The notes: a model not told the origin generated them from the sequence alone. A stretch of 64,000 bases of DNA from Vicinamibacteria bacterium (GCA_963697705.1 CAVOPA010000009.1:240821-304820), one strand, 5' to 3'. Shown: positions 2,031 through 30,075, counted from the first letter of the stretch. Numbers and translations are program-made.

Positions 2031-2037
2031 GGACGCC

Positions 2038-6228: not shown

Positions 6229-6317
6229 ATGCACAATGAAATGCTGAATGACACTCGGTCCGCGGCGCCGGCTGCCTGCTTCGGGCGCCTTTGTGCATCG
6301 TGCGTTGTGCATCGTGC
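6229..6317 (+). promoter_or_regulatory. Candidate operator/promoter repeats upstream of coxB: ATGCACAA (6229-6236) and two direct TTGTGCATCGTGC copies (6291-6303, 6305-6317)
   Basis: The direct repeat has a 14-bp period, and an inverted half-site lies about 55 bp upstream. All sit in the comparatively AT-richer 120-bp gap between the SCO1 gene and coxB. Confidence 0.3.
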
Positions 6318-6341
6318 ATTACACGTTTGTTGACACGATCC

Positions 6342-7367
6342 ATGCAGCCAGGAACCACATCCCTCTTTCCGGAGCAGGCCTCCACGATCGCCCCGCGCGT
6401 GGACAACCTGTATTTCTTCATCACGTCGGTCAGCGCGTTCTTCGCGGTGGTCGTGACGGTGCTGGTCATCATCTTCGCGATCAAGTATCGGCGGCGCCAT
6501 CCCGACGAGGTGGGCGCGCCGATTCACGGGTCTCTGGCGCTCGAGCTGATCTGGACGGGCATCCCGTTCATCCTGGCGATGGTGATGTTCGTGTGGGGGG
6601 CGAGCGTGTACTTCGCGATCGCCCGGCCGCCGTCCGAGACGCTCGACATCTACGCGGTCGGCAAGCAGTGGATGTGGAAGTTCCAGCACCGCGAAGGACA
6701 GCGCGAGATCAACACGCTGCACGTACCGATCGACACCCCGGTGCGGATGGTCATCACGTCCGAGGACGTGCTGCACGATCTGTATCTGCCAACGTTCCGC
6801 GTGAAGATGGATGCCATCCCCGGGCGCTACACGCAGCTCTGGTTCACGGCCACCAAGCTGGGAACCTATCACCTCTTCTGCGCGGAGTACTGCGGAACGA
6901 AGCACTCCGGCATGGTGGGATGGGTGACGGTGATGCCGCAGGAGGACTACCAGACGTGGCTGAGCGGCGGCGCGACGGAAGGCACGCTCGCCCAGACGGG
7001 CGAGAAGCTGTTCACGCAGCTCGCCTGCGTCACCTGCCACGCGGGCGGCGATACGCAGCGCGGACCCGTACTGAACGGGCTGTTCGGCTCGCAGGTGAAG
7101 CTGGCGAACGGGGAATCGATCGTCGCCAACAACGACTACATCCGCGAGTCGATCCTGAATCCGCAAGCGAAGATCGTGGCCGGCTTCCCCCCCATCATGC
7201 CGACCTTCCAGGGTCAGGTGAGCGAAGAACAGCTGCTCGCGCTGACCGAGTACATCAAGTCCCTGCCGGCGGGTAAGAGCGCACCCGGCGCCGGCGGGCA
7301 GGACTCGTCCAGTTCGACGCCGCCGGCCGGCACGCAGCCGGCCGCTCCGTCGCAGCCCAGGCAGTAG
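6342..7367 (+). CDS. coxB: Cytochrome c oxidase subunit II with fused C-terminal cytochrome c domain (caa3 type)
   Basis: CuA ligand pattern H...CAEYCGTKHSGM and a C-terminal CVTCH haem-c motif. The ATG at 6342 (MQPGTTSLFPEQAST) is preferred over the track start at 6291. Confidence 0.9.
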   Translation: MQPGTTSLFPEQASTIAPRVDNLYFFITSVSAFFAVVVTVLVIIFAIKYRRRHPDEVGAPIHGSLALELIWTGIPFILAMVMFVWGASVYFAIARPPSETLDIYAVGKQWMWKFQHREGQREINTLHVPIDTPVRMVITSEDVLHDLYLPTFRVKMDAIPGRYTQLWFTATKLGTYHLFCAEYCGTKHSGMVGWVTVMPQEDYQTWLSGGATEGTLAQTGEKLFTQLACVTCHAGGDTQRGPVLNGLFGSQVKLANGESIVANNDYIRESILNPQAKIVAGFPPIMPTFQGQVSEEQLLALTEYIKSLPAGKSAPGAGGQDSSSSTPPAGTQPAAPSQPRQ

Positions 7368-7373
7368 AGACTC

Positions 7374-9030
<1,657 letters not shown>

Positions 9031-9038
<8 letters not shown>

Positions 9039-9765
9039 CGCCGCTCTCGCGCACGCCGGCGCACACGGGGCGGCCGACGCCCACGGCCACATCCGGCTGC
9101 AGCATCATTTCGACACGCTCGGCCAGCAGAAGGCCGCCGCCAGCCTCGGCATGTGGGTCTTCATCGCCCAGGAGATCATGTTCTTCGGCGGGATGCTCGC
9201 CGCGTACCTGATCTACCGCCTGTGGTTCTACGCGGGTTACACCGCGGCGAGCCGGGAGCTCGATCTCGTGCTCGGCGGGATCAACACGGCAGTGTTGATC
9301 GGCTCATCCCTGACGGTCGCACTCGCGGTGCACGCGGCGCAGGAAGGGAAGCAGCGCCAGATCCTCGGCTACCTCGGCGCGACCCTGATTCTCGGCCTGG
9401 TGTTCCTCGGCATCAAGTACGTCGAGTACCATTCGAAGTTCGAACTGCACCACGCGCATCACGCCAACGCGATGATCCGGCTCTTCCCGATGCAGGGCTG
9501 GTTCCAGGTCGACGGCGAGCTGGCGCCGATCGCGAACCAGATGCGCATGTTCATGGTCCTGTACTTCGCGCTGACGGGCATGCACGCGCTGCACATGATC
9601 ATCGGCATGGTGCTGCTGCTCATGCTCATGAACATGGCCCGCAAGGGCGCATTCACGCCGCGATGGTACACGCCGGTGGAGCTGTTCGGCCTCTACTGGC
9701 ACTTCGTCGACATCGTCTGGATTTTCCTGTTCCCGCTGTTGTACCTCGTCAATCGTCACCACTGA
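9031..9765 (+). CDS. coxC: Cytochrome c oxidase subunit III
   Basis: Typical subunit III sequence (HHFD...[16 protein letters not shown]...[12 protein letters not shown]). TTG at 9031 is preceded by GGAGG (9020-9024) at 6-nt spacing. The in-frame ATG at 8992 is an alternative start. Confidence 0.9.
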
Positions 9766-9768
9766 GCC

Positions 9769-10107
9769 ATGTCGTCATACGAATTCGCCGAGCACGAGGA
9801 ATACGAGGAACACGTCGTCCCGAAGAGCGTGTACCTGGCGATCTTCGGCGCCCTGATGGTGCTGACGTTGATCACGGTGGCGGTCGCCTTCGTCGACCTC
9901 GGCAACCTGAACGTTCTCGTGGCGATGACCGTCGCGGTGGTCAAGGCCACGCTCGTCGTGCTGTTCTTCATGCACGTCAAGTACGCGTCGCGCATCACCA
10001 AGCTGGTGGTCATCTCGAGCATCGTGTGGCTCGGTTTTCTCTTCTGCATCACCCTCACCGATTACCTGACCCGCGGATGGCTGATGGCGCCGCCGCTACC
10101 GAGATGA
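9769..10107 (+). CDS. coxD: Cytochrome c oxidase subunit IV (small bacterial caa3-type subunit)
   Basis: 112 aa with three TM helices. Sits immediately after coxC. Paralog at 20741-21067. Confidence 0.75.
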   Translation: MSSYEFAEHEEYEEHVVPKSVYLAIFGALMVLTLITVAVAFVDLGNLNVLVAMTVAVVKATLVVLFFMHVKYASRITKLVVISSIVWLGFLFCITLTDYLTRGWLMAPPLPR

Positions 10108-10120: not shown

Positions 10121-11161
10121 CTAGGACGTCCCGTACCCCCACCCCTGGAGCTGCTCGAGCGCGATCTCGGTCATCGCCGCAATCCATCGCGGCCGATCGT
10201 TCAGCCCTTTCACCAGCTGCAGCGTCTCGCCGCCGGCAGCCCGGAACTGCTCGAGTCCGACGTGCCCGATTTCGTCGATCGTCTCCAGGCAGTCGGCAAC
10301 GAAGCCTGGACAGATCACCGTCACGTCTCGAATACCGGCTCGCGCCAGTGCGACCAGGGTCTCGTCCGTGTACGGGCGCAGCCACGGCTCGCGGCCGGCG
10401 CGCGATTGATAGGAAAGCTGGTACGTGCCATCCGCCCACCCGGCCCGTGCGGCCAGCAACCTCGCGGTCGCCTCGCAGTGCGATGCGTACGGGTCGCCGC
10501 TATCGACGAACCGCTGCGGAATGCCGTGGAAGGAAATGAGGATCTTGCCGGGCCGCCGGGGCAGCGGCGTCATCGCCTCACGAGCCGATTCGGCGAGCGC
10601 CTCGACGTAAGCCGCGTGGGCGTAATAGGGCGGGACCACACGGAGTGCCGGCACGAACCGGGACAGCGACAGCTGCCGGAACACCTCGTCGTAGGTCGAT
10701 CCCGTCGTTGCGCTTGCGTACTGCGGGTAGAGCGGAAACAGCAGCAGCCGGTCCGCCCCCCAGGCCAGCAGCTCCCGCACGGCCGACCCGATCGAGGGAC
10801 TGCCATAGCGCATGCCCAACGCGACCTTGAACCGTCCCGGCTCCTCGCGATTGAGCGCGGCTTCGAAGGCGCGCGCCTGCGATCGCGAGATGACGAGCAA
10901 CGGCGAGCCCTCGCGCGACCAGATCCGCTGATAGAGCGCAGCCGACCGGTGGGGCCGGCGCGGTAATACGAGCAAGCGCAGGACGAACCACCACAGCACC
11001 CGGTTGCGCTCGACGACGCGAGGGTCGCTCAGAAACTGCCGCAGGTAACGACGAAGCGCCGCAGCGGTCGGCGCATCCGGCGTGCCGAGCTGCGCGAGCA
11101 GCACGCCGAGGCGGTCGTTGTTGTGCGCCAGCAGTGCCTCCACACGGCCTTCCTGCAACAA
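10121..11161 (-). CDS. hemH: Ferrochelatase
   Basis: 346 aa with typical blocks (GVLLAQLGTPDAPT, LRRYLRQFLSDPRVV, LFPLYPQYASATTGS, ISFHGIPQRF). Confidence 0.9.
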   Translation of the reverse strand: MLQEGRVEALLAHNNDRLGVLLAQLGTPDAPTAAALRRYLRQFLSDPRVVERNRVLWWFVLRLLVLPRRPHRSAALYQRIWSREGSPLLVISRSQARAFEAALNREEPGRFKVALGMRYGSPSIGSAVRELLAWGADRLLLFPLYPQYASATTGSTYDEVFRQLSLSRFVPALRVVPPYYAHAAYVEALAESAREAMTPLPRRPGKILISFHGIPQRFVDSGDPYASHCEATARLLAARAGWADGTYQLSYQSRAGREPWLRPYTDETLVALARAGIRDVTVICPGFVADCLETIDEIGHVGLEQFRAAGGETLQLVKGLNDRPRWIAAMTEIALEQLQGWGYGTS

Positions 11162-11532
11162 ACCGTGACAATCCGGAAGACCTTTCCTATCATAGCTGCC
11201 GCGTCACAGCCGGAGCCGGCGTGACCGGCACAGTCGGACGTGACGCCACTAGGCTCATGTCGCCCTCCCTCACGGTTCCCTGCGCCGCGCACAGCGTTCC
11301 GGTGCGACACGGGCTCCGGACTGGCGTCTGCTGGGATCGGCGTGAGCGAGGTTTCGGAGACTCCCATCGTGGCTGCATCAGAGCGACAAGGTGGCACCAA
11401 TCGATGCGCGCGGATCGAAGGCGGTGACGTACCGACCAGGGCGCGGCCTCTTCTCTCCAATCCCGCCGTAGCCTTCCGCCATCGCCGCCGGACGAAGCAG
11501 GCTGATCATCGTCCCGTCGTCTCGAGAGTTCG

Positions 11533-12729
11533 ATGAGGACAGTTACCGTGGTCGGCGGAGGGTTCTCCGGGCTCGCGACGGCGTACTACCTGTCGCAGGC
11601 GGGAATCTCCGTCGAGATCCTCGAGAAGACCGACCGGCTCGGCGGCCTGATTGCAACGCTCGAGACGCCACACGGCCCCGTCGAGACCGCGGCGATGGGG
11701 ATGAAGAACTGTGCGCGCGTCGACGCGGTGTGCCGGGACCTCGGGCTTCCGATGCTGTGCTCCACCCGAGCGTCCGGCCGGGCTCGTTACATCTACCGCC
11801 AGCGACCCAGGCGCTGGCCGCTGAACCCAGGCGAGTACCTGACGCTCGCGGCGCGGTTCGCGACGGCGACGGCGCGGGGCTCGCGGCGCCCTCGGCCGCT
11901 CGAGACGGTGGACGAGTGGGGCGCGCGTGTGCTGGGACGGCGGGCCACCCGGTGGCTGATCGGTCCAACCCTCCAGGGCATGTACGCCGGCGATCCGGCG
12001 CGCCTCAGCGCCTCGCTGGTGTTTGGCGCGCGGGAGCGGGCCGCGCCACCTGCACGGAAGGGCCTGATGGCACCCGCACGCGGGATGCAGCAACTCATCG
12101 ACGCGTTGGAATCCCGCCTGCGGGCGCGCGACGTGAGCATCCGCCTGAATACCCCGGCACGGCTGGATGGCTCGACGCCCGCGGTCATCTGCACATCGGC
12201 GCGCGATGCGGCGGAGTGCCTCCGGGACGTTGCCCCGGCCGCGAGCCAGGCGCTGTCGACCATTGACATGCTCCCCCTCGTCCGCATCACCGCCTTCTAC
12301 CCCGAGGACGACGCGCCGCAGCGGGCCCGCGGAATTCTCTTCCCGCGTGGTGGAGACATCCGCGCGCTCGGCGTGTTGTTCAACACCAACATCTTTCCCG
12401 ATCGCGCGGGGCAGTACTCGGAGAGTTGGATTTACGGCGGCGCCGCGGATCGTGATGTCGTCCACCTCGCCGAAGACGATTTGGCGGCGTTGATGGATCG
12501 TGACCGGCAGTTGCTCTGCGGGCGTTCGGTTGCACCCGCCGCACGAGTGGTGCACCGCTGGCGCGCGGCGCTACCGCATTACGACCTGCAGCTGGAATCG
12601 GTGCGGGCGGGCGGCTTCGACCTGCCAAGGGGCGTCTTTCTGGCGGGGAACTACGTGGGAGGCATCGGTGTGACGATGCTGCTCGAACAGGCCGCGGCCG
12701 TCGCCACCCGGGTACGCGAGATGGCGTAA
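11533..12729 (+). CDS. hemY: HemY-type FAD-dependent protoporphyrinogen/coproporphyrinogen oxidase
   Basis: N-terminal dinucleotide fold VTVVGGGFSGLATAYYL. Amine-oxidase-like body. Divergent from hemH. At 398 aa it is shorter than many family members. Substrate cannot be assigned from sequence. Confidence 0.75.
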   Translation: MRTVTVVGGGFSGLATAYYLSQAGISVEILEKTDRLGGLIATLETPHGPVETAAMGMKNCARVDAVCRDLGLPMLCSTRASGRARYIYRQRPRRWPLNPGEYLTLAARFATATARGSRRPRPLETVDEWGARVLGRRATRWLIGPTLQGMYAGDPARLSASLVFGARERAAPPARKGLMAPARGMQQLIDALESRLRARDVSIRLNTPARLDGSTPAVICTSARDAAECLRDVAPAASQALSTIDMLPLVRITAFYPEDDAPQRARGILFPRGGDIRALGVLFNTNIFPDRAGQYSESWIYGGAADRDVVHLAEDDLAALMDRDRQLLCGRSVAPAARVVHRWRAALPHYDLQLESVRAGGFDLPRGVFLAGNYVGGIGVTMLLEQAAAVATRVREMA

Positions 12730-12814
12730 TCGCGTGAGTGCCGAGACGTGCCGCAGTGCCGTTACGTCTGTGGCTCTCGGGTGTTCTGTCCGCAGCGCGC
12801 GAGGAGGAAGCTCG

Positions 12815-14023
12815 ATGTTCAGTCATCAACCGGATCCTGAGGTCCTCGTCGTCGGCGCCGGTCCCGTTGGTCTCGTCGCGGCCTTGTTCCTGCAGCAGTA
12901 CGGGGTCCGCGCGGAGATCGTCGATCTGCACCAGCGGACGACCCAATACAGTTACGCCCTCGCGATTCATCCCCGCACGCTCCGGATTCTCGACGAAGCA
13001 GGCCTCTCCGACGGGCTGATCGGCGCGGGCCGGAAGCTGACGACCGTCGCCTTCTACGAAGGACGGGAGAGGCGCGCCGAGATCGATTATGCGGCCCTCG
13101 CGTCCGACCACCCGTACCTGCTGGTCGTCCGCCAAAGCCTGCTGGAGAGGGCGGCGGAGGAGGCACTCCGTCGGCGGAAGCTCGAGGTCCTGTGGGGCCA
13201 CCGGCTGCAGGCCCTCACCGTGGACGGCACGACCGTCCGGGCGGAGGTGGCGACGCTCGATCAGGTCGCGACCGGCTACCCCGTCGCGCGAAGCGAGTCG
13301 GTCGTCGTGCGAACCGAGACCATGCGGCCGGCCTTCGTGATCGGCGCCGACGGGTACGACTCGGCCGTGCGGCGGATGTCCGGCATCGAGATGGCGGAGC
13401 ACGGCGTTGGCGAGGTCTTCTCCGTCTACGAGATCGAGGCGACGGGCGAGCTTCCCGCGGAAGTCCGCGTCATTCTCGATCCAGACCTGACGAGCGTCTA
13501 CTGGCCCCTCGAAGAGGGCCGATGCCGCTGGGGGTTCCAGATCCAGGACGCCTCCGGACACGAGGCATCGATGGCGCGGCTCGAACAGTTGATCGCCGCG
13601 AGGGCTCCCTGGTGCACGGCGCGGCCGACCCAGATTTACTGGTCGACGCTCGGCCTCTTCGAGCGCCGCCTGACGCGACGGTTCGGGAAAGGAGCCGTCT
13701 GGCTCGCAGGGGACGCGGCTCACCAGGCGGCTCCGGTCGGCGTGCACAGCATGAATTCGGGGCTGGTCGAAGCGCGCGAGCTGGCATCGCGCATGTCGCG
13801 GATCCAGCGCGCGGGGGCAGCACCCTCGCTTCTCCAGGAATTCGGGACCGAGACGCACGATGCGTGGGGACGGCTACTCGATGCCGGCCGCGCGGTGCGG
13901 GCGCTTCCGGAGGCGGCCCCGTGGGTGCGGCAGGCCGCGGGGCGGATCGTCGCCTGCATTCCCGCCTCGGGAGATGACCTCGAACCGCTGCTCAATCAAA
14001 TCGGCCTCACCGCCGCGCCGTAG
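12815..14023 (+). CDS. FAD-dependent aromatic-ring monooxygenase (UbiH/PheA-like)
   Basis: ATG at 12815 is preceded by GAGGAGG (12801-12807). GxGxxG fold ([17 protein letters not shown]) and a late GDAAH motif ([13 protein letters not shown]). Confidence 0.8.
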
Positions 14024-14072: not shown

Positions 14073-14101
14073 TTGACTCGCGCGATACACGCTGATAGAA
14101 A
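14073..14101 (+). promoter_or_regulatory. Candidate sigma70-type promoter for the second respiratory operon (TTGACT-17 nt-TAGAAA)
   Basis: The -35-like TTGACT is at 14073-14078 and the -10-like TAGAAA at 14096-14101, about 35 nt upstream of the proposed TTG start at 14136. Pattern match only. Confidence 0.3.
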
Positions 14102-14135
14102 TGGCCGTCCTCAACAGCTGACGCGGGGAACCGGC

Positions 14136-15602
14136 TTGGCCCAGACGGAAGCGGAACTGCTCGACAACCCTGTCGCCGGCCAGCCCACCCTGATCCTGGG
14201 CTCGCCGGACTTCCATTCGATCACCGAGGCCGTCGCGGCGCCGGTCGAGCGCGGGACACCGCTCGGCTGGTGGCTCCTCTTCCTCCCGTCCCTCGCGCTC
14301 CTCGGCCTGCTCGGCGTGGCGGTCTCGTGGCTGTTCTGGGAGGGGATCGGCGTCTGGGGCCTCAACGTCCCCGTCGGCTGGGCGTGGGACATCACGAACT
14401 TCGTCTTCTGGGTCGGCATCGGCCACGCCGGCACGCTCATCTCGGCGATCCTCTTTCTCTTCCGGCAGAGATGGCGCACCTCGATCAACCGTTCGGCGGA
14501 GGCGATGACCATCTTCGCCGTCATGTGCGCGATGACCTTCCCGGGGATTCATGTGGGACGCGTCTGGGTCGCCTACTGGATGTTCCCGATCCCGAACCAG
14601 ATGGGCGTCTGGCCCAACTTCAGGAGCCCTCTTCTCTGGGACGTCTTCGCGGTCAGCATCTACGGAACCGTCTCGGCCCTGTTCTGGTACGTCGGCCTGA
14701 TCCCGGACCTGGCGACGCTGCGCGATCGGGCGAAAACGCCGACGCGGAAATTCGTCTACGGCCTCTTCGCGCTCGGATGGCGCGGCTCCGTGCGGCAGTG
14801 GCATCACTACGAAACCGCCTACCTCATTCTCGCAGCCCTCGCGACGCCGCTCGTCCTGTCGGTTCACTCGATCGTCTCGATGGACTTCGCGGTCTCCCTC
14901 CTCCCTGGATGGCACACGACGGTCTTCCCGCCCTACTTCGTCGCGGGCGCGATCTTCTCCGGGTTCGCCATGGTGCTGACGCTCATGGTGATCTGCCGCA
15001 AGGCGTTCCGCCTCGAGCACATCATCACCCTCCGGCACTTCGACTACATGTCGAAGATCATGCTCGTGACCGGGATGATGGTCGGCTACGCCTATGCCAC
15101 GGAGTTCTTCACCGCGCGCTACAGCGGGAACCCCTACGAGATCTTCACGTTCCTGAACCGCGCGCTCGGGCCGTACGCCTGGGCCTACTGGATCATGGTC
15201 ACCTGCAACGTGATCAGCCCCCAGATCTTCTGGTTCAAGAAGGCGCGCACGAGCATACCGATCCTGTTCGTCGTGTCGATCGTCATCAACGTCGGCATGT
15301 GGTTCGAGCGGTTCGTGATCATCGTGACGTCGCTGCACCGTGACTTCCTGCCGTCGTCCTGGGGCTACTTCACGCCCACGATCTGGGACGTGTCGTGCCT
15401 GCTCGGAAGCTTCGGGCTCTTCTTCACGATGTTCTGCCTGTTCGTGCGCTTTCTTCCGATGGTGGCGACCGCCGAGGTCAAGACCGTCCTGCCGCAGGCC
15501 GATCCGCACTGGCAGCCCGGCCCCGAACGTGAGATCAGGGACCATCGGGCCGCGCCGCGGCCTCTCGGCGCGCCCACGCCCGCTGCCGAAGGTTCCTCTT
15601 GA
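14136..15602 (+). CDS. ActC paralog (NrfD-like membrane subunit) of a second, reduced ACIII-like module
   Basis: Aligns along its whole length with ActC (600-2030). The track ORF starts at 13860 but overlaps the upstream gene. TTG at 14136 gives an N-terminus equivalent to ActC, with a GGGGAA about 8 nt upstream. Confidence 0.85.
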
Positions 15603-16159
15603 TGTCGCTCCTCTTCTCGCGCCTGCCGAAGGGGCCGTACTACGGAATCCTGGCCGAATTCGCGACGCCGGCGGACCTCTTTCACGCGTGCGAGCGAGTG
15701 CGCGACGCGGGCTTCACCCGGTGGGACGCGCACAGCCCGTTCCCTGTCCACGGTCTCGAGGGAGCGATGGGGCTCAGGCGCTCTCCGCTTCCGTGGATCG
15801 TCCTCGCCACGGGGCTGATGGGGGCCACGCTCGGGTTCTGCCTGCAGTGGTGGGTCCACGCCGCCGCCTACCCGCTCGTGATCAGCGGCAAACCGTACTT
15901 CGCCTGGCCCGCGTACATTCCGATCACCTTCGAGGTCGCAGTGCTGTTCGGCGCGCTCGGCGCCGTCTTCGGCATGTTCGGCCTGAACCAGCTGCCCATG
16001 CACTACCATCCGCTCTTCAGGTCCCAGGTCTTCGAGCGGGTGACCGACGACGCCTTCTTCATCTCGATCGAATCGTGGGATCCCCGATTCGATCCGTCGG
16101 CGACGGGGAAGCTGCTGGAGTCGCTGGGCGCACGCAGCGTCGAGCTCCTGGAGGCCTGA
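15599..16159 (+). CDS. ActD paralog (DUF3341-type)
   Basis: [13 protein letters not shown]...[15 protein letters not shown] aligns with ActD. The start (TTG 15599 or ATG 15602) overlaps the upstream stop codon. Confidence 0.8.
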
Positions 16160-17374
16160 ATGATCCCCGAACGCGATCGCGTCGCGCTGCGGCCCGAGCA
16201 GGCCACGATTCCGCCGGGGCACCCGGCGAACCGCCTTCCGATCGTCGGCGTCGTCGCCGCCCTGCTGGGCGCTGTGGTGTGCGTGATTCTGGGGCCGGCC
16301 AATCCGAAGCAGTTCTTCTTCTCGTGGCTCGTGTCGTTCCTGTTCTTTCTCAGCCTGGCCGTCGGCGCGCTCTTCTTTGTGCTGATCCAGTACGCAGCCC
16401 AGGGCGAATGGGGGATCGTGCTGCGGCGGATCGGGGAGACGACCTTCGCGACGATTCCCGTGATGGCGGTCCTCTTCGTGCCGGTGCTCCTCGGCCTGCA
16501 CGATCTCTACCTGTGGAGTGTTCCGGGCGCGGCGGAGCATGATGCGCTGCTTCGCTGGAAGGCGCCTTATCTCAACGTGCCGTTCTTCCTGGTCCGGGCG
16601 GCGCTCTACTTCGGAAGCTGGTCCTTCATCGCGGTCTTCTACTACCGCAGCTCGCGCGGTCAGGACGTGACGGGGGATCTCCGGGTGTCGGCCCGCTTGC
16701 GCCGCCTCGCGGGTCCCGCCCTCATCGTCCTCTCGGTGACCTCGACCTTCGCCTCGTTCGACTGGATCATGTCGCTCACGCCGCACTGGTACTCGACCAT
16801 CTTCGGCGTCTATTTCTTCGCCGGGTCCTTCGTCGGGTTCATCGCGCTGCTCTCGGTCGTCGTGGTGGCGATGCGCGGGGCGGGACTGCTGGACACGGTC
16901 ATCAGCACCGAGCACCTGCACGATGTCGGCAAGCTCCTGTTCGCATTCACCGCGTTCTGGGCCTATATCGGCTTCTCCCAGTTCTTCCTCATGTGGTACG
17001 CCAACCTCCCGGAGGAGACGATTTGGTACAAGGCCCGGATGGAGGGGTCCTGGATGCAGGTCTCGCTGTTCCTGATGGCGGGGCATTTCGTGGCGCCGTT
17101 CTTCTATCTGATGGGGCGCACGGTCAAGCGGAAGGGAGCGACCCTGGCGGCCGGCGGAGCGTGGCTCCTCGCCATGCACTTCCTCGATCTCCACTGGCAG
17201 ATCATGCCGACGCTCCATCCCGACGGGTTCCGTCCGTCGGTGCTGGACGTCGCCGCGCTGATGGCCGTCGGCGGGTGCTTCGTGGCGGCGGCGAGCTGGC
17301 TGATGCGACGGCAGGCACTCGTGCCGCTGCGCGACCCGAGGCTCGCCGAATCTCTCGCTTTCGAGAACGCCTGA
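16160..17374 (+). CDS. ActF paralog (polytopic membrane subunit)
   Basis: HLHDVGKLLFAF..WAYIGFSQFFLMWYANLPEE aligns with ActF. The start is adjacent to the actD-paralog stop. Confidence 0.8.
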   Translation: MIPERDRVALRPEQATIPPGHPANRLPIVGVVAALLGAVVCVILGPANPKQFFFSWLVSFLFFLSLAVGALFFVLIQYAAQGEWGIVLRRIGETTFATIPVMAVLFVPVLLGLHDLYLWSVPGAAEHDALLRWKAPYLNVPFFLVRAALYFGSWSFIAVFYYRSSRGQDVTGDLRVSARLRRLAGPALIVLSVTSTFASFDWIMSLTPHWYSTIFGVYFFAGSFVGFIALLSVVVVAMRGAGLLDTVISTEHLHDVGKLLFAFTAFWAYIGFSQFFLMWYANLPEETIWYKARMEGSWMQVSLFLMAGHFVAPFFYLMGRTVKRKGATLAAGGAWLLAMHFLDLHWQIMPTLHPDGFRPSVLDVAALMAVGGCFVAAASWLMRRQALVPLRDPRLAESLAFENA

Positions 17375-17604
17375 GTTGATGACGGCGAGCTTACGGGGAT
17401 GCCAGCACGCAACCCGTCGTGGCGTGTGCCCGCGGGCCATGCGCAGCCACGCAACCGTGGGCCTGCCGCGCCGAAGCGCGCGACTTGTGCTGCGCGCGAA
17501 GGCGGGTGTACAGTCGGCTCGCAATCAAATTTCTGAGACGACAGCCCCGATGTGATCGCGCGCGGGAGCCGGCGTCTCGAAGACGAACAAGGAGGCGATG
17601 GACC

Positions 17605-18348
17605 ATGACCAAGGAGACGAGGATGCGCAGGATGGAGAAGAGGGTGTGCCTGGCGGCAGTGCTGGCCGCCGTGTCGGTCTGGCCAGGCGTCGCCATCGCC
17701 GCGTCGTCCATCAACGGAACCGTCACCTTCGACGGGAAAGCCCCCACTCTCAAACCGATCGCGATGGACGCCGACCCCGGGTGCGCCAAGAAGCACTCGG
17801 GACCCGTGCCGAACGAAATGCTGGTGCTCGGCAGCGGCAACACCATGGCGAACATCATGGTCTATGTCTCGAAGGGCCTCCCGGCCGGGAAGACCTGGCC
17901 CGTCCCGAGTACGCCGGTTGTCCTCGATCAGAATGGCTGTCAGTACAAGCCGCACGTGATGGGGATCATGGTCGGTCAGACCTACAAGATCCTCAACTCC
18001 GACGGCATCCTCCACAACATCCACACGCTGCCGCAGATCAACAAGTCGTTCAACCGGGCGATGCCGGCGACGTTCAAGGAGACGACAACGACCTTCGACA
18101 AAGCGGAGGCGATCTTCCACACCAAGTGCGACATCCACCCCTGGATGAGCGCCTACGTCGGTGTCTTCACCCATCCCTTCTTTTCGGTGACGAGCACGGA
18201 CGGGAAGTTCACGATTTCCGGCCTCGACCCTGGCACCTACGAGATCACCGCCTGGCACGAAAGGCTGGGGACGCAGACAGCTTCGGTCACGGTTGGCGCC
18301 ACCGATACGAAGACGCAAAACTTCAAGTTCGCCGTCCCCGCGAAGTAG
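17605..18348 (+). CDS. Secreted type-1 (blue) copper protein: amicyanin-like cupredoxin embedded in a beta-sandwich scaffold
   Basis: AAGGAGG lies 9 nt upstream of the ATG at 17605. Signal peptide VCLAAVLAAVSVWPGVAIA. Ligand pattern HNIH ... C-D-I-H-P-W-M (C-x2-H-x2-M, as in amicyanin CTPHPFM). Confidence 0.75.
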   Translation: MTKETRMRRMEKRVCLAAVLAAVSVWPGVAIAASSINGTVTFDGKAPTLKPIAMDADPGCAKKHSGPVPNEMLVLGSGNTMANIMVYVSKGLPAGKTWPVPSTPVVLDQNGCQYKPHVMGIMVGQTYKILNSDGILHNIHTLPQINKSFNRAMPATFKETTTTFDKAEAIFHTKCDIHPWMSAYVGVFTHPFFSVTSTDGKFTISGLDPGTYEITAWHERLGTQTASVTVGATDTKTQNFKFAVPAK

Positions 18349-18366
18349 TCATTCGGAGATCAGCGC

Positions 18367-20130
18367 ATGAGTGAGCCGGCAGCCGTCGCCGCATCCACGC
18401 CGCACGCCGCGCACGACGTCCATCACGAGGCGCTCGGCTTCTGGCGCACGTACGTCTTCTCCGTCGATCACAAGGTCATCGGCATCCAGTACGGCATCAC
18501 CGGTCTGCTGTTCCTGCTATTCGGCTTTTCGCTGATGATGCTCATGCGCTGGCAGCTCGCCTACCCTGGCGTCGCGCTGCCGCTCATCGGTAACCTCTTC
18601 GGCGAAGCGCGCATGCCGGGAGGCACGATGCTCCCTGAGTTCTACAACGAGCTCGGGGCGATGCACGGCACCATCATGGTCTTTCTCGGCGTGGTGCCCC
18701 TGGCCGTCGGCGGTTTCGGGAATTTCGTGCTCCCGCTCCAGATTGGAGCGCCGGACATGGCCTTCCCGCGGCTCAACATGGCGAGCTACTGGTTCTTCTT
18801 CCTCGGCGGCGTGACGATGCTGGCCAGCTTCCTCGTCCCCGGGGGAGCGGCGCAGTCCGGGTGGACCTCCTACGCGCCCCTCTCGGTCATCGCGGGTACG
18901 GGCCAGACGATGTGGCTCATCGGGATGATTTTCCTGATCACCTCGTCGCTGCTCGGGGCGGTCAACTTCATCACGACCACGATCCAATTGCGCGCCAAGG
19001 GCCTCACGTTCATGCGATTCCCCTTCTTCGTGTGGGCGCAGTTCGTGACCGCGTTCCTCCTGCTCCTGGCCTTCCCGCCGCTCGAGGCCGCGGGCGTCAT
19101 GCAGCTGATGGATCGTGTCGCCGGGACCAGCTTCTTCCTCCCGAGCGGCCTCGTCGTCAGCGGCCAGGTCCTGACGAATGCGGGCGGAGGCAACCCGCTC
19201 CTGTGGCAGCACCTGTTCTGGTTCCTGGCGCACCCGGAAGTCTACGTCCTGATCCTTCCGGCGATGGGGATCGTCGCCGAGATCATCGCGAACAACACGC
19301 GGAAGCCCCTGTGGGGCTACCGTTCCATGGTCTACTCGATCATCTTCCTCGGCTTCATGTCGTTCATCGTGTGGGCGCACCACATGTTCATGACCGGCAT
19401 GGGGACGGCGATGGCGGCGTTCTTCCAGACGACGACGATGATCATCTCGATTCCATCGGTCGTGATCCTCACGGCCCTGATCATCTCGCTCTGGGGCGGA
19501 TCGATACGTTTCAATACGCCGATGCTCTTCGCGGTCGCCTTTCTGCCGATGTTCGGCATCGGCGGGCTCACGGGGCTTCCGCTCGGCTTGAACGTCGCGG
19601 ACATCCCGCTGCACGACACCTACTACGTCATCGGCCACTTCCACTACGTCGTCGCGCCAGGGACGATCTTCGCCCTGTTCGCGGGGATCTACTACTGGTA
19701 TCCGAAGGCAACTGGAAGAAAGATGAACGAGACGCTCGGCAAGATCCATTTCGCCGGCTCGTTCGTCTGCATGAACGTCATCTTCATGCCGATGTTCCTC
19801 ATGGGCCTGGCCGGCGTCTCACGGCGGCTGTACGACGGTGGCGCGAGCTACGCGTTTGCGCAGCCGGTGCTGCACCTGAACGTCGTGTCGTCCTGGGGTG
19901 CGTGGATTATGGCGCTCTTCCAGATCCCCTTCATCTTCAACTTCTTCTGGAGCCTCCGGAAGGGAGAGAAGACCGACGCGAACCCGTGGCAGGCCACGAC
20001 AATAGAGTGGGCGGCGCCATCGCCCCCGCCGCACGGCAACTTCTCCGCGCCACCGGAAGCGTACCGGGGGCCCTACGAGTACAGCGTTCCCGGCGCGGCC
20101 AGGGACTTCGTGCCGCAGTCCGAGGCCTGA
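18367..20130 (+). CDS. coxA: Cytochrome c oxidase subunit I, second copy
   Basis: 587 aa with HCO blocks (WFLAHPEVYVLILPAMG, VWAHHMF, HDTYYVIGHFHY). Confidence 0.95.
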   Translation: MSEPAAVAASTPHAAHDVHHEALGFWRTYVFSVDHKVIGIQYGITGLLFLLFGFSLMMLMRWQLAYPGVALPLIGNLFGEARMPGGTMLPEFYNELGAMHGTIMVFLGVVPLAVGGFGNFVLPLQIGAPDMAFPRLNMASYWFFFLGGVTMLASFLVPGGAAQSGWTSYAPLSVIAGTGQTMWLIGMIFLITSSLLGAVNFITTTIQLRAKGLTFMRFPFFVWAQFVTAFLLLLAFPPLEAAGVMQLMDRVAGTSFFLPSGLVVSGQVLTNAGGGNPLLWQHLFWFLAHPEVYVLILPAMGIVAEIIANNTRKPLWGYRSMVYSIIFLGFMSFIVWAHHMFMTGMGTAMAAFFQTTTMIISIPSVVILTALIISLWGGSIRFNTPMLFAVAFLPMFGIGGLTGLPLGLNVADIPLHDTYYVIGHFHYVVAPGTIFALFAGIYYWYPKATGRKMNETLGKIHFAGSFVCMNVIFMPMFLMGLAGVSRRLYDGGASYAFAQPVLHLNVVSSWGAWIMALFQIPFIFNFFWSLRKGEKTDANPWQATTIEWAAPSPPPHGNFSAPPEAYRGPYEYSVPGAARDFVPQSEA

Positions 20131-20135
20131 TTGAG

Positions 20136-20726
20136 ATGGAAATTCCCTACACCGTAGCGATCCGCCGCGATACCGGCCTCAATAACGGCAAGATCGGGAT
20201 CTGGCTCTTTCTGGCGTCGGAGGTGATGCTGTTCGGCGCCCTGTTCGCGTCCTACATCCTGATCCGGACGGGGGCACCGACCTGGCCGCGGGGAGACACG
20301 ATCCTGAACGTGCCGCTCGCCACGTTCAACACGCTCGTCCTCATTTCGTCGTCGGTCACGATGGTCATGGCCTGGGCGTCGCTGATGCGCCACCGCATCG
20401 GGACCTTCCGGATCTACATGGGGACGACGATCCTGCTCGGGTTCGTGTTCCTCGTGGTGAAGTACTTCGAATACAGCCACAAGTTCCACGACGGGCTCTT
20501 TCCCAGCACCAACAACTTCCTCGCCATCTACTTCACGTTGACCGGCCTGCACATGCTCCACGTGGCCGGCGGGATGGCGGTGAACGCCTATCTGCTGGGT
20601 CCAGGCTCGAAGCTCTGGAAGACGAACCCGGAGTGGTTCACGAATCGGGTCGAGAACTCGGGTCTCTTCTGGCACTTCGTGGATCTGGTCTGGATCTTCC
20701 TGTTTCCGACGCTGTATCTTCTCTAG
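20136..20726 (+). CDS. coxC: Cytochrome c oxidase subunit III, second copy
   Basis: ATG at 20136 lies within track ORF 18861-20726. Sequence IGIWLFLASEVMLFGALF...LFWHFVDLVWIFLFP. Confidence 0.9.
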   Translation: MEIPYTVAIRRDTGLNNGKIGIWLFLASEVMLFGALFASYILIRTGAPTWPRGDTILNVPLATFNTLVLISSSVTMVMAWASLMRHRIGTFRIYMGTTILLGFVFLVVKYFEYSHKFHDGLFPSTNNFLAIYFTLTGLHMLHVAGGMAVNAYLLGPGSKLWKTNPEWFTNRVENSGLFWHFVDLVWIFLFPTLYLL

Positions 20727-20740
20727 CAGGGACGACGATC

Positions 20741-21067
20741 ATGACGAGCGATCACGTGAGCGTGACGAGCGACCACGCAGCTGACATCGACAAGCACGTC
20801 AGGATCTACATCACCGTGTTCGTCGCGCTCATGGCCCTGACACTGATCACGGTGGCGGTGTCTCGCGTTCACCTTCCCGTGCCGATCGCCGTGAGCGTGG
20901 CCCTGCTCGTTGCCACCGTGAAGGGAACGCTGGTGGCGTGCTACTTCATGCACTTGATCTCCGAGAAGAAGCTGATCTACGCGGTTCTCGCGATTACCGC
21001 TGTCTTCTTTGTCGCGCTGCTCGCCCTTCCGGCCATGACCGTCAGCAACGGCTACTGGATTCACTGA
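20741..21067 (+). CDS. Cytochrome c oxidase subunit IV-like small membrane protein, second copy
   Basis: 108 aa with three TM helices. Resembles 9769-10107 (LVACYFMHL versus VVLFFMHV). Confidence 0.7.
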   Translation: MTSDHVSVTSDHAADIDKHVRIYITVFVALMALTLITVAVSRVHLPVPIAVSVALLVATVKGTLVACYFMHLISEKKLIYAVLAITAVFFVALLALPAMTVSNGYWIH

Positions 21068-21267
21068 TGAACCTGCGGTCGGTCCACGCGCTGCTGATCC
21101 TCCTCTCCGCGGCGCTTGCGGTGATCTTCGGTCTCTGGTGCCTGGGCCGATACGGGCGGGAGGACGGTGTGGCGAGCCTGCTCGCGGCTATCGCGGCCTT
21201 CGCGGTGTCATTGGGTCTGGTCGTCTACGACTCATGGTTCCTGCGTAAGACGAGGACGCTGCGATGA
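21067..21267 (+). CDS. Hypothetical two-TM membrane protein (66 aa)
   Basis: The ATG overlaps the upstream TGA (TGATG), and the stop overlaps the next ATG (ATGA). Two hydrophobic helices. No recognisable family. Confidence 0.5.
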   Translation: MNLRSVHALLILLSAALAVIFGLWCLGRYGREDGVASLLAAIAAFAVSLGLVVYDSWFLRKTRTLR

Positions 21268-21629
21268 CCCGCCTCCACTCTTCCCCCTTCGCGCGTCGTG
21301 CTACGCCGGACAGGTCGCGCTTCGGCGCGGCAGGAAGCGCCGAGTCGCCGGCCCTCCGCTGGATTTTGCAGGCTTGCACGACGGCCGCGGCCGTGATCAT
21401 CGGCGGGGGCACGAGCGTCCTTGCCTGCCCCGTGTGCTTCGGGGCGGAGGAGAGCTCGATGATCGACGCGACGAAGCTCGGGGTCATCGTGATGCTGGCC
21501 ATCACGCTCGTGGTCCAGGGCGGGTTCGTGGGCTTCTTTCTCTACCTTCGCAGGCGCGCGAAGCGCATCGCAGACGTCGAGCTCGACACCGAGTGGTCGG
21601 AGCTCCAAGGGGCCTCGAGAACATCATGA
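21264..21629 (+). CDS. Hypothetical two-TM membrane protein with a CPVC motif in the inter-helix loop
   Basis: Arg-rich N-terminus, TM1, ACPVCFG, TM2. ATGA overlaps on both sides indicate translational coupling with coxB. Confidence 0.55.
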   Translation: MTRLHSSPFARRATPDRSRFGAAGSAESPALRWILQACTTAAAVIIGGGTSVLACPVCFGAEESSMIDATKLGVIVMLAITLVVQGGFVGFFLYLRRRAKRIADVELDTEWSELQGASRTS

Positions 21630-22426
21630 CTGAATGGCTCGGACTCCCGCCGCTCGCCTCGGCTCACGGCGGCCAGATCGACAGCTTGATTGGCTGGACG
21701 CACGTGTTCATGCTCATCCTGTTCGTCGGATGGGGAGCATTCTTCGCGTATACCCTGGTTCGCTTCCGCCGCTCGCGGCACCCGGTGGCGGACTACACGG
21801 GAATCAAGTCGCATGCCTCGAGCTATTCCGAGATCGGCGTGGCCATCGTCGAAGCGATTCTCCTGTTCGCGTTCTCGGTTCCGATCTGGGCCGCGAGAGT
21901 CGACCGCATTCCGCCGGAGAACCAGGCGCTGGTCGTTCGGGTCACGGGCGAGCAGTTCGCCTGGAACGTCCACTATGCCGGCCCCGACAGAGTATTTGGC
22001 CGCACCGACGTCAAGCTGATCGACCTGCAGTCGAACCCTCTCGGAGTCGATCGCTCCGATCCGGCTGCCAAGGACGACATCACCACGGTCAATCAGCTCT
22101 ACCTGCCCGTGAACAAGCCCGTGATCGTCAGGCTCAGGAGCAAGGACGTCATCCACAGCTTCGGCGTGCCCGAGTTCCGGGTGAAGCAGGACGCCATTCC
22201 CGGCCTCACGATTCCCATCTGGTTCATTCCCAACGTCACGACCGCCGAGATGCGGACCCGGACGGGGAAGGCGGACTTTCAGTACGAGATCGCCTGCGCG
22301 CAGCTCTGTGGGCTGGGCCATGCCCGCATGCGCGGATTCGTCACCGTCCAGACCGCAGACGAGTTCCAGAAATGGATGGACGCCCAGGAGGAACAGCTGA
22401 AGGGCGAATCCGACATCTTCCAGTAG
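21626..22426 (+). CDS. coxB: Cytochrome c oxidase subunit II without a cytochrome c domain
   Basis: Two N-terminal TM helices and the CuA pattern VIHSF...CAQLCGLGHARM. No CxxCH motif. ATG at 21626 lies within track ORF 21167-22426. Confidence 0.9.
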   Translation: MTEWLGLPPLASAHGGQIDSLIGWTHVFMLILFVGWGAFFAYTLVRFRRSRHPVADYTGIKSHASSYSEIGVAIVEAILLFAFSVPIWAARVDRIPPENQALVVRVTGEQFAWNVHYAGPDRVFGRTDVKLIDLQSNPLGVDRSDPAAKDDITTVNQLYLPVNKPVIVRLRSKDVIHSFGVPEFRVKQDAIPGLTIPIWFIPNVTTAEMRTRTGKADFQYEIACAQLCGLGHARMRGFVTVQTADEFQKWMDAQEEQLKGESDIFQ

Positions 22427-23486: not shown

Positions 23487-26065
23487 ATGCCTGAGATCTT
23501 TGCCGACCTGCGGTATGCATTACGCGGCCTGCGCCGGAGCCCGCTCTTTGCCGTCGTGGCCATCCTGTCGCTATCGCTCGGAATTGGCGCAAACACAGCG
23601 ATCTTCACGCTGATCGACCAGATTCTGCTCCGCAAGCTCCCGGTGAAGAACCCCGACGAGCTCGTCATGCTCTATCAGGAAGGGGCCAACAACGGCAGCA
23701 ATGCGGGCTCGCGGATGCATTCGTATCCGATTTACCAGGACTATCAGAAGCGCGCCGCCCCCCTGGCCGAGGTCGTGTGCCGGCGTCTGGTGCCCGCATC
23801 CGTCAGCATCGACAACCGGACCGAACGGCTCGAGGCCGAGCTCGTCTCCGGCAACTTCTTCACCATGCTGGGGGTCAGGCCCGCCGCCGGGCGCGTGCTC
23901 AACTCGAAGGAAGACGATCAGGTCTATCAAGGCCACCCGGTCGTCGTTCTCGCCTACGACTACTGGGTGAGCCGCTTTGCCCGTGACCCCAGGATCATCG
24001 GCAAGAAGATCCTCGTCAACGACTACCCCATGACGATTGTCGGCGTGTCTCAGGCGGGGTTTGCGGGGATCGATCCGGCACGGAGTCCCCAGATCCGCGT
24101 GCCGATCCTGATGAAGCCGGTCATGCTGCCCGACTGGGACTGGCTGAAGATCGGTGACCGCCGCGCGCGGTGGGTGCAGGTGTTCGCACGGCTCAAGCCG
24201 GGCTACACGGCGGAGTCGGCGAAGGCGCCGCTCCAGACGCTCTTTACGCAGATTCGGCGGCATGAGATGTCGCTGCCGGCGGCGAAAGACTGGTCCAAGT
24301 ACGAGCGCGGCGAATTCATGAAGGGGCGACTGCTCGTCGAGCACGCGGCCATGGGCTACTCCGGCCTGCGCAACGACTTCTCCACGCCCCTGGTCGTGCT
24401 CATGTGCATGGTCGGTCTCGTGCTGCTGATCGCCTGCGCGAACGTCGCCAACCTGCTGATTGCGCGCGGCTTCATGCGCCAGCGGGAGATCGCGGTGCGC
24501 CTGTCGCTCGGTGCGTCGAGGCGGCAGCTGGTGCGGCAGTTGCTCGTCGAAAGCCTCGTGCTGTCGTTCTTCGGCGGCATCGCGGGGGTATTGCTCTCGG
24601 TCGCGCTCACACGAGGTCTGCTGGCGTACATGCCGACTGATGGGACTCCGCTCCTCATCGCGCCATGGCCTGACGCCCGCATCCTCGGCTTCACGCTCGT
24701 CCTCACGCTGACGACGGGAATCGTGTTCGGTCTCGTGCCGGCGCTGCGCTCGAGCCGCCCCGACCCGTGGACGACGCTCAAGGACACGGTGGGCTCACTG
24801 GCAGGAGGCAGCGGTTCGCTGTTCCTGCGCAAGGGCCTGGTCACCGCGCAGGTGGCGCTCAGTTTCCTGCTGCTGTTCGGTGCCGGACTCTTCGTGCGCA
24901 GCCTGCAGAACCTCAAGACCGCCGAAACGGGTGTCGCGCTCGACAACCTGATCACGTTCCAGCTCGCGCCGTCGCTCAGCGGCTACGACGATCGCAAGGC
25001 CACGGACTTCTACAGCCAGCTGCTCGCACGTCTGCGCTCGGCGCCAGGCGTCGATTCCGCCGGCCTTGCCACCGTATCCATCCTGAGCGGCAACGAGTGG
25101 GACAGCAGCATGTCGGTCGAAGGTCATCACCCCGTCGACGGCGAAGACATGCAGGCCTTCATGAACGCGCTCTCGCCCGGATACTTCAAGACGATGCGCA
25201 TTCCGCTGCTCGAAGGGCGGGACTTCACCGATGCCGACGTCCAGAACCACGCGACGTTCTTCGCGACCCTGCTCGCCGACGAGAAGTCGGCCTCCGCTCA
25301 CACCGTTGCGATCGTCAACAGAAAATTCGCCAATCATTTCTTCAAGGGTCGCAGCGCCATCGGACGGCGCATCGGCTTCGGCACCGGACCCGACGCCAAG
25401 CAGAACATCGAGGTCGTGGGCGTTGTCGCGGATTCGCTCTACGAGGGTCCGCGCGAGGGCGTCCGGCGCCAGGTGTTCATCCCCAACTTCGGCAAGAACA
25501 GCGCGACGATCTATGTGCGGACGCACAACGCCTCCTCGTCCGCGTACAGCACGATGCGGAGCGTAGTGCGCCAGCTCGACGCAGCGCTGCCGATCTACGA
25601 AATGAAGACCGTCGAAGCGCAGCTCGACGAGACGCTGCTCACCGACCACCTCATCGCCACGCTCTCGGCCGGGTTCGGCTTCCTCGCCACGCTGCTCGCG
25701 TCGATCGGGCTCTACGGCGTGATGGCATTCGTGGTCGCGCGTCGTCGAAAGGGGCATTCGTGGTCGCGCGTCGTCGAAAGGAGCTCGGCATCCGACTCGC
25801 GCTCGGCGCTCAGCCGGGTCTCCTGATCTGGCTCGTGATGCGGGAAGTGCTGATACTGCTCGCGATCGGGCTCGCGATAGGCCTGCCATCCGCGCTCGTG
25901 CTCGGGCGATTCGTCGAGTCGCAGTTGTACGGCGTCAAGGCGCAGGACCCGACGATGGCCATTGCCACGGTGGTCGTCCTGTCGGTGGTGTCGGCGACGG
26001 CCGGGTTGATCCCGGCGCGAAAGGCCAGCCGGATCGACCCGATTCTGGCCCTTCGATACGAGTAG
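23487..26065 (+). pseudogene. ADOP-family duplicated FtsX/MacB-like permease, disrupted by a 29-bp tandem duplication
   Basis: The N-terminal 779-aa ORF (23487-25826) and the C-terminal FtsX helices in track ORF 24767-26065 join into one 849-aa protein if one repeat copy is removed. Typical LSLGIGANTAIFTL and RIDPILALRYE ends. Confidence 0.85.
25724..25781 (+). repeat. Perfect 29-bp tandem duplication (GGCATTCGTGGTCGCGCGTCGTCGAAAGG x2)
   Basis: Copies at 25724-25752 and 25753-25781 are identical. The insertion length is not a multiple of 3. Confidence 0.95.
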
Positions 26066-30064: not shown

Positions 30065-30075
30065 TCGGCCGGTTC

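Follow-up and report, generated by a model that had tools for sequence, protein, structure and literature searches.

A second, optional ActC-ActD-ActF membrane module of alternative complex III encoded beside a copper protein and an aa3 oxidase in Vicinamibacteria

Of the respiratory complexes that oxidize quinol, alternative complex III (ACIII) is understood least, and the coupling of its membrane arm to its peripheral redox arm is at issue. A 64,000-nucleotide (nt) stretch of DNA from a Vicinamibacteria bacterium (GCA_963697705.1, CAVOPA010000009.1:240821-304820; this whole stretch is referred to as the window) raises the question of what such a membrane arm might do when it is encoded alone. 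At positions 14136-17374 lie genes for further copies of the ACIII subunits ActC, ActD and ActF (here ActC2, ActD2 and ActF2, and together the cassette), followed by genes for a blue copper protein (Cup) and an aa3 oxidase, with none for the iron-sulfur (Fe-S) subunit ActB or the heme subunits ActA and ActE. From the comparisons described below we propose that the cassette supplies ACIII with a second membrane module, which is optional and would use ActA, ActB and ActE in trans; to this reading we assign a probability of about one half. The host is a soil acidobacterium of the class Vicinamibacteria; the GC content of the window is 63-69%, and its nearest relatives are metagenome-assembled genomes of Vicinamibacteria (Acidobacteriota subdivision 6).

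The three cassette genes are on the plus strand. ActC2 (14136-15602) begins with a TTG codon and encodes a 488-residue NrfD-type quinol-binding membrane subunit (Pfam NrfD, E = 6e-23), ActD2 (15599-16159) a two-helix ACIII subunit of 186 residues (Pfam ActD, PF11821, E = 5e-67), and ActF2 (16160-17374) a second NrfD-like membrane subunit of 404 residues that lacks a quinol site and has no Pfam match, but is matched by chain F of the Rhodothermus marinus ACIII structure (6F0K_F, E = 3.7e-94). An earlier interpretation made from the DNA alone, which we call the sequence-only reading, had described these products as paralogs of the ActC, ActD and ActF of a canonical locus at the start of the window (ActC1, ActD1 and ActF1), and we find that they do align end to end with these, at 58% (over 436 residues), 40% and 42% identity, respectively, and contain the shared blocks quoted there. 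Among solved structures their best matches are to R. marinus 6F0K (688 bits for ActC2, 194 for ActD2 and 320 for ActF2; E = 1.6e-56 for ActD2 against 6F0K_D). All three cassette proteins are nearest to the R. marinus complex, whereas ActC1 and ActF1 are nearest to the complexes of Chloroflexus and Roseiflexus, and because the nearest ACIII lineages differ the cassette did not arise by recent duplication of the first locus. Recent horizontal transfer of the cassette was also considered, and was rejected given that its GC content equals that of the surroundings.

The features that mark ActC as a 10-helix, NrfD-like subunit with a quinol site, and those that mark ActD and ActF, were all found in the cassette, but ActB and the pentaheme ActA or monoheme ActE in the same cluster were not. 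A search of open reading frames (ORFs) gave no ActA-, ActB- or ActE-like product between 14.0 and 22.4 kb, nor elsewhere in the window beyond the canonical locus, and the abutment of the ActD2 end (16159) on the ActF2 start (16160) leaves no space for actE. Neither CxxCH nor CxxxCH occurs in any of the ten products encoded at 14136-22426, and outside the canonical locus the entire window is free of CxxCH-rich or Fe-S ORFs. The absences on which the sequence-only reading was built are thus real.

Given the missing subunits, and given that the cassette has been lost repeatedly among related loci, it might be supposed that it is a decaying and functionless remnant of a second ACIII operon. However, its ORFs are intact in 48 loci, with mean identities to the window of 88% (ActC2), 85% (ActD2) and 82% (ActF2), and the ratios of nonsynonymous to synonymous substitution (dN/dS) are 0.18, 0.19 and 0.24, respectively, as compared with 0.14 for the oxidase subunit CoxA2; the cassette is under purifying selection, with dN/dS of about 0.2. 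In the window the first 4 nt of the ActD2 gene are also the last 4 of the ActC2 gene (15599-15602), read in a different frame, while in 12 of the 48 related loci (L007, L010, L011, L031, L032, L035, L037, L071, L081, L086, L089 and L090) ActC2 and ActD2 form a single in-frame ORF of about 680 residues. These fusions are present in both short-read and long-read assemblies, and therefore are not only an artefact of long reads; they provide Rosetta-stone evidence that the two proteins share a complex. The maintenance of in-frame fusions, the low dN/dS and a nearly invariant promoter element (see below) effectively rule out the remnant.

We then asked what the conserved residues imply about function. 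In R. marinus ActC the quinol site is made up of His139, Ser164, Asp169 and Asp253 (residue roles from PMC5928083), and in the alignment to 6F0K_C all four are identical in ActC2 (H139, S164, D169 and D250); the pocket residues W82, I86, F89, P136, L166 and V247 are kept as well, as is S242. The roles of the pocket and coupling residues are likewise known from the R. marinus complex (PMC5928083), and by the alignments the proposed coupling triad, Ser245 (ActC2), Glu122 (ActD2) and Tyr284 (ActF2), is kept across the cassette, E112 of ActD2 aligning with Glu122 of 6F0K_D and the Tyr of the FWAY motif of ActF2 with Tyr284 of 6F0K_F. The primary electron acceptor, FeS1 of ActB, is 10-12 Å away from the quinol site (PMC5928083), and an intact pocket in ActC2 therefore calls for a partner of the ActB type.

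The surface that would receive such a partner is conserved as well. We took a topology in which every known quinol-site residue faces the periplasm, and with it compared the five periplasmic loops: ActC2 shares 72% identity there with both R. marinus and Flavobacterium johnsoniae ActC, and these two proteins, both solved with ActB bound, share 73% with one another. In ActD2 the periplasmic loop, which in ActD is described as contacting ActB, keeps the motif YPL.ISGKP.F..P. A conserved surface towards ActB, combined with an intact pocket, would be expected of an ActC2 that continues to dock a subunit of the ActB type, and is not expected had this surface of ActC2 been freed or put to another use. 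The two checks that the sequence-only reading had proposed for ActC2, of its quinol pocket and its ActB-contact surface, thus both ended in conservation.

A likely source of the Fe-S and heme subunits is the canonical act operon, which occupies 8-4657 on the plus strand and encodes the C-terminus of ActB (8-580), ActC1 (600-2030), ActD1 (2038-2586), ActE1 (2576-3232, with one CxxCH) and ActF1 (3470-4657). ActA and the remainder of ActB are immediately upstream of the window, as read on the public contig to which the window belongs (L084), which makes the first locus a full canonical ACIII. We propose that ActC2D2F2, a self-promoted, optional and Rhodothermus-type copy of the membrane module (the quinol-binding part of ACIII, for which proton translocation has been proposed) with no redox cofactor of its own, would join the ActB Fe-S and ActA/ActE heme subunits of this operon, 10 kb upstream, to give an ACIII isoform. 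Electrons would pass from menaquinol in the ActC2 pocket to the Fe-S clusters of ActB and the hemes of ActA and ActE, and from there might proceed to the secreted type-1 copper protein and to CuA of the adjacent aa3 oxidase. The last portion of this path has a precedent in Chloroflexi, where the reduction of the blue copper protein auracyanin by ACIII is established (PMC7439408, PMC10873879), and by analogy a chain from ACIII through the cupredoxin to CuA of the adjacent oxidase is plausible. The frequent adjacency of cassette and oxidase genes could also reflect a dedicated supercomplex, given that subunit III of the oxidase is short and that in the ACIII-aa3 supercomplex of F. johnsoniae it is a five-helix subunit III that makes the contact (PMC8361435).

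The sequence-only reading had placed the cassette, the copper protein and the oxidase in one operon, with genes joined by overlapping or near-adjacent start and stop codons. Most junctions among the ten genes are indeed tight (-4 to +18 nt), but 230 nt separate the ActF2 stop (17374) from the ATG of Cup (17605), and the single operon does not survive the comparison of related loci. While a simple consensus scan of the region for promoters and terminators gave nothing useful, comparative alignment across related loci identified two conserved promoter-like elements. P1, the predicted sigma-70-like promoter of ActC2D2F2 (14073-14101, plus strand), has the -35 hexamer TTGACT (14073-14078), a 17-nt spacer and the -10 hexamer TAGAAA (14096-14101). 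The element TTGACT-N17/18-TA[CG]AAA is found about 35 nt before the TTG start of ActC2 in 35 of 42 loci (0.3% expected by chance per 160 nt), its consensus, TTGACT-N17/18-TACAAA, is nearly invariant, and it is present both with and without the gene for a flavin adenine dinucleotide (FAD)-dependent monooxygenase upstream. P2, the predicted sigma-70-like promoter of Cup and the oxidase (17485-17514, plus strand), has TTGTGC at -35 (17485-17490), an 18-nt spacer and TACAGT at -10 (17509-17514); its consensus, TTGCNC-N17/18-TAGAGT, is found in 32 of 47 loci with the cassette and in 26 of 37 without it (1.5% by chance per 290 nt). Two such elements argue for two adjacent units rather than one obligate operon, and Cup and the oxidase would then form a separate transcription unit, with read-through from the cassette possible.

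Around P1 the conservation extends beyond the hexamers. Within 14079-14135 of the window, and in the equivalent region of 35 loci, the spacer is nearly invariant, with a tandem GCGCGAT GCGCGAT in the consensus, and a conserved block, CCACTTTTCAAAC, follows the -10 hexamer. Together the two suggest a putative regulator binding site overlapping the promoter.

That the units are separable is also apparent from their distribution. We scanned one genome per GTDB species, obtained 380 stretches with a relative of Cup and examined the best 80 loci, almost all of which are labelled Vicinamibacteria or Acidobacteriota; among the matches listed, the homolog searches and the genome scan gave only Vicinamibacteria-like relatives, at identities of at least 73%. 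The sequence-only reading had asked whether the arrangement recurs in other genomes without ActA, ActB and ActE. It does so in part: ActC2-ActD2-ActF2 lies directly upstream of Cup and the oxidase in 44 of the 75 loci with enough upstream DNA, and is missing within 10 kb in the other 31. The cassette stands directly upstream of the Cup gene in 47 loci in all and is known from at least 49 Vicinamibacteria loci, and within 10 kb on either side of 49 cassette loci no ActB was found except in separate canonical act operons. Such an operon is divergently adjacent to the cassette in three loci (L043, L060 and L067), and in two others (L009 and L023) the Cup-oxidase unit directly follows the canonical ACIII-caa3 cluster.

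Where the cassette is present, the gene order is either hemQ-[FAD monooxygenase]-ActC2D2F2-Cup or, as in the window, hemH(-)-hemY-FAD monooxygenase-ActC2D2F2-Cup. Counting all of the fetched loci, hemQ (coproheme decarboxylase family) stands directly before the Cup gene in 15, and hemY does so in one; given these clean junctions and gene orders, the cassette behaves as a clean insertion or deletion. Loci with and without it are intermixed on a neighbor-joining tree of CoxA2, and this scatter, together with its absence from 31 of 75 loci, is as expected for a redundant module. Repeated loss would be explained by the use of ActA, ActB and ActE from another locus, since ActC1D1F1 remains. Conversely, Cup (78% identity to the window) and the oxidase subunits (about 90%) are equally well conserved with and without the cassette, and the unit that they form would thus also work without it.

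Although option one of the sequence-only reading, an alternative arm borrowing ActA, ActB and ActE, is favored by the conserved pocket, the coupling residues, the ActB-facing loops of ActC2 and ActD2 and the complete act operon nearby, these support it indirectly, and several considerations weigh on the other side. The periplasmic loops of ActC1 and ActC2 are just 61.5% identical, and as the two proteins belong to different ACIII lineages a single ActB would need to fit both. In 59% of loci the cassette and the oxidase unit are neighbors, and mere redundancy would hardly account for so close an association, which hints that the cassette is tied more closely to this oxidase. Co-occurrence of the cassette with ActA, ActB and ActE was judged from loci extending 10 kb to either side. 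Finally, what the comparisons show is gene content, sequence and residue conservation, the promoter elements and the pattern of presence and absence, whereas the trans assembly, the route of the electrons and a supercomplex with the aa3 oxidase are inferred.

The same lineage difference raises the alternative that the cassette pairs instead with an unlinked periplasmic module, either an orphan actAB(E) of the Rhodothermus type or another NrfC/PsrB-like Fe-S protein. Orphan actABEG operons are known in Chloroflexus (PMC9316378), the cassette is of the Rhodothermus lineage while the neighboring ActC1 and ActF1 are Chloroflexus/Roseiflexus-like, and the conserved ActB-facing loops would suit any ActB-like subunit. 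However, apart from the canonical act operons no genes of this kind are found within 10 kb of the 49 cassette loci, and there are none in the 64-kb window. Moreover, the ActB of the first locus is not clearly restricted to one lineage, given its near-equal scores against the ActB of Roseiflexus (396 bits), Chloroflexus (383 bits) and R. marinus (372 bits). An unlinked partner is less probable than use of the neighboring operon, and is quite possible because the two ACIII lineages differ.

The proximity of the cassette to the copper-protein gene in 44 of 75 informative loci invites a different proposal, in which the cassette would be an Fe-S-free quinol:cupredoxin oxidoreductase, the copper protein docking on ActC2 at the seat of ActB and carrying electrons directly from menaquinol to CuA. 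It is in keeping with this that the pocket is intact, that no Fe-S or heme protein is encoded in cis, and that Cup possesses parts beyond a minimal cupredoxin (a segment with C61 and C113, and a C-terminal beta-sandwich). On the other hand, Cup and the oxidase are as well conserved where the cassette is missing and have their own predicted promoter, the Cup family (12,974 clusters at 50% identity) is far wider than the cassette, and in one locus (L087), where the order is hemQ-FAD monooxygenase-ActC2-ActD2-ActF2, the genes that come next are unrelated and encode neither a copper protein nor an oxidase. In addition, the ActC2 loops are conserved towards homologs that bind ActB, not remodelled. 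We consider such an oxidoreductase improbable, and give a slimmer chance still to the stricter claim that ActC2D2F2 is an Fe-S-free and heme-free NrfD-type quinol oxidase that feeds the copper protein directly and, through it, CuA of the aa3 oxidase. If it were true, it would constitute a copper-only link from the quinone pool to oxygen and the first NrfD-family module without an Fe-S partner; were the cassette to work without Fe-S partners, the rule that NrfD-type subunits need one would be overturned.

The second option of the sequence-only reading was that the cassette serves the copper-fed aa3 oxidase without redox chemistry of its own, as a proton-translocating or scaffold accessory, and may be an iron-sparing isoform. 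The residues of the proposed proton channel and of coupling are conserved, the cassette lies beside the oxidase unit in more than half of the loci, and Cox3_2, the subunit III of this oxidase, is short like the one that mediates contact with ACIII in F. johnsoniae. However, the fully conserved quinol pocket speaks for redox chemistry, and without quinol oxidation there would be no source of energy for pumping. The oxidase unit, moreover, has its own predicted promoter, is equally conserved without the cassette and stands alone in 31 of 75 loci, and in L087 it is the cassette that stands without an oxidase. As to iron sparing, little iron would be saved if ActA, ActB and ActE were still required. 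This option has been weakened accordingly, and an accessory of this kind now appears unlikely. Both it and the quinol:cupredoxin proposal are disfavored because the Cup-oxidase unit is independent and because the features that face quinol and ActB are conserved.

The copper protein itself is well supported. Cup (17605-18348, plus strand) is a 247-residue protein with an amicyanin-like cupredoxin domain and a C-terminal CarboxypepD_reg-like beta-sandwich, of which Pfam recognizes only the latter. An AlphaFold2 model of moderate quality (pLDDT 63) gave a top 30 of Foldseek matches in the PDB made up of amicyanin, plastocyanin, pseudoazurin and NirK, the first three being the best, at E-values of 4e-4 or weaker, which supports a cupredoxin fold. 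The type-1 ligand set, H138 and C176-x2-H179-x2-M182, is invariant in 23 close orthologs, and all 32 cluster representatives at 35-52% identity to the window protein have H138, C176 and H179, with M182 present in at least 90% of them; the copper loop, C-x2-H-x2-M, is amicyanin-like. The fold matches and ligands bear out the blue-copper assignment of the sequence-only reading, and JGI names the protein 'plastocyanin'. A signal peptide of the Sec type, without a lipobox, can be read in the sequence of Cup, which is therefore taken to be a secreted type-1 copper protein. Beyond the copper domain, the N-terminal segment with invariant C61 and C113 is conserved, as is the C-terminal beta-sandwich. 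Of the clusters in the family, 1,529 are found at E <= 1e-30. The combination of cupredoxin and CarboxypepD_reg also occurs as the C-terminal module of proteins of 500-2,000 residues and as tandem copies (P0241, P0285, P0354, P0365 and others).

The oxidase encoded after Cup is an A-family heme-copper oxidase of the aa3 type, all of its genes being on the plus strand. CoxA2 (18367-20130) is an A1-type subunit I (Pfam COX1, PF00115, E = 6e-134, 448 bits; TIGR02891) with an HPEVY motif, and its nearest solved relatives are the aa3 oxidases of Paracoccus and Rhodobacter. Cox3_2 (20136-20726; Pfam COX3) is a short subunit III of 196 residues whose match to the 258-position COX3 profile is confined to positions 77-255, and thus is without the N-terminal helices; Cox4_2 (20741-21067) is a prokaryotic subunit IV (Pfam COX4_pro, TIGR02229). 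CoxB2 (21626-22426; Pfam COX2, PF00116; TIGR02866) is a subunit II with a complete CuA site, the ligands being the H of DVIHSF and the C..C..H..M of CAQLCGLGHARM, and contains neither CxxCH nor a cytochrome c domain, so that the oxidase is free of heme c, as the sequence-only reading had held. The profile searches that it had proposed gave the models expected for these genes and for the cassette (NrfD, ActD, COX1, COX3, COX4_pro and COX2).

Between Cox4_2 and CoxB2, likewise on the plus strand, lie two small genes for conserved membrane proteins with no Pfam or NCBIfam match. The product of the first, s66 (21067-21267), has 66 residues with two hydrophobic segments and occurs in almost every related locus, with an identity of about 79%. 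The second encodes a small membrane protein of 121 residues, s121 (21264-21629), with an invariant ACPxCFG; this motif and the C-terminal half, with its ...LYLRKRAKRIAD.ELDTEWSELQ, are conserved in 41 sequences. The two could be oxidase subunits or copper-insertion factors. Downstream of CoxB2 several relatives carry a conserved group of minus-strand genes that is absent from the window, namely a radical SAM/SPASM-PCP_red gene, a small PCP_red gene, a ParA/CbiA-like ATPase gene and a Usp-PCP_red gene (L001, 14961-20750; L086, 16138-21215; L088, 16333-21215; L089, 19386-21215).

A first oxidase region, at 5379-10107 on the plus strand, encodes SCO1 (5379-6221), CoxB1 (6291-7367), CoxA1 (7374-9038), Cox3_1 (8992-9765) and Cox4 (9769-10107), and is assigned to the caa3 type because CoxB1 carries one CxxCH, a c-heme motif; CoxA1 is nearest to the Thermus caa3 oxidase. 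Subunit III differs between the two oxidases, Cox3_1 having about 257 residues as compared with the 196 of Cox3_2. At 10121-12729 follow hemH (minus strand) and hemY, so that the oxidase island is set among genes of coproporphyrin-dependent heme biosynthesis, and in many relatives hemQ/ChdC (Chlor_dismutase family) immediately precedes either the cassette or the copper-protein gene (the latter for example in L004, L016, L027, L039, L041 and L051).

Between hemY and P1 lies the gene for the FAD-dependent, aromatic-ring monooxygenase-like protein (12734-14023, plus strand; Pfam FAD_binding_3, PF01494, E = 9e-47), for which no NCBIfam model scores at cut-off. It was considered as a member of the cassette and rejected; it is a variable neighbor, given that about half of the loci with a cassette lack it upstream of ActC2 and that it lies 5' of P1. 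A part in quinone modification is conceivable. On the other side of the oxidase, at 23487-25826 and 28523-30079 (minus strand), are genes for MacB/FtsX-type permeases with an N-terminal motif typical of the duplicated orphan permeases of acidobacteria, and akin genes also flank the locus in L001, L086 and L087.

As the sequence-only reading had surmised, an ActCDF-only system appears to be undescribed: the literature that we searched for ActCDF-only or truncated ACIII clusters gave no description of one. All parts are of known families, and the likely mechanism is that of a known complex, in a genetic and modular arrangement that is new. An optional membrane module that would draw on ActA, ActB and ActE in trans is less radical than what the sequence-only reading proposed, and is useful both for the mechanism of ACIII and for the respiration of soil Acidobacteriota, in which the conserved cupredoxin and aa3 operon suggests that one branch of aerobic respiration is mediated by copper. 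The cassette is a natural and widespread membrane arm encoded alone, in an abundant soil lineage, and would serve as a system for the contribution of that arm to the choice of oxidase partner, to quinone specificity and to pumping.

Several known systems share features with this locus. Cupredoxin carriers to heme-copper oxidases include cyanobacterial plastocyanin, sulfocyanin SoxE of the Sulfolobus SoxM complex, and AcoP of Acidithiobacillus. Cup shares with these the association of a type-1 copper protein with a CuA oxidase, by gene linkage or by function, and its copper loop, C-x2-H-x2-M, is amicyanin-like. It differs from them in being built of two parts, the C-terminal one a CarboxypepD_reg-like domain, and in having an additional, invariant pair of cysteines. 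The ACIII-aa3 supercomplex of F. johnsoniae (PDB 6BTM, EMD-7447) similarly has a subunit II without a c-heme domain and a short subunit III; there, however, an extra heme domain of ActA feeds CuA, whereas here a secreted cupredoxin precedes the oxidase and the cassette is without ActA.

The R. marinus complex, ActABCDEF(H) (PDB 6F0K), associates with a caa3 oxidase. The cassette is like it in its quinol-site, coupling and ActB-facing residues and in having oxidase genes alongside, and unlike it in lacking ActA, ActB, ActE and ActH, in having its own predicted promoter, in being optional, and in adjoining an aa3 oxidase and a cupredoxin rather than a caa3 oxidase. Closest in genetic logic are the Cp and Cr operons of Chloroflexus, where ACIII works with a blue copper protein, auracyanin, and where the modules of the complex are likewise divided over loci, with one module proposed to serve two complexes. 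The Cr operon of Chloroflexus aurantiacus contains actABEG and no actCDF, and proteomics suggests a single ActCDF, that of the Cp operon, for the two (PMC9316378). The arrangement described here is its mirror image, actCDF without actABE, and by complementing Chloroflexus, in which it is the peripheral arm that is duplicated, the cassette lets the interchangeability of ACIII modules be examined in vivo.

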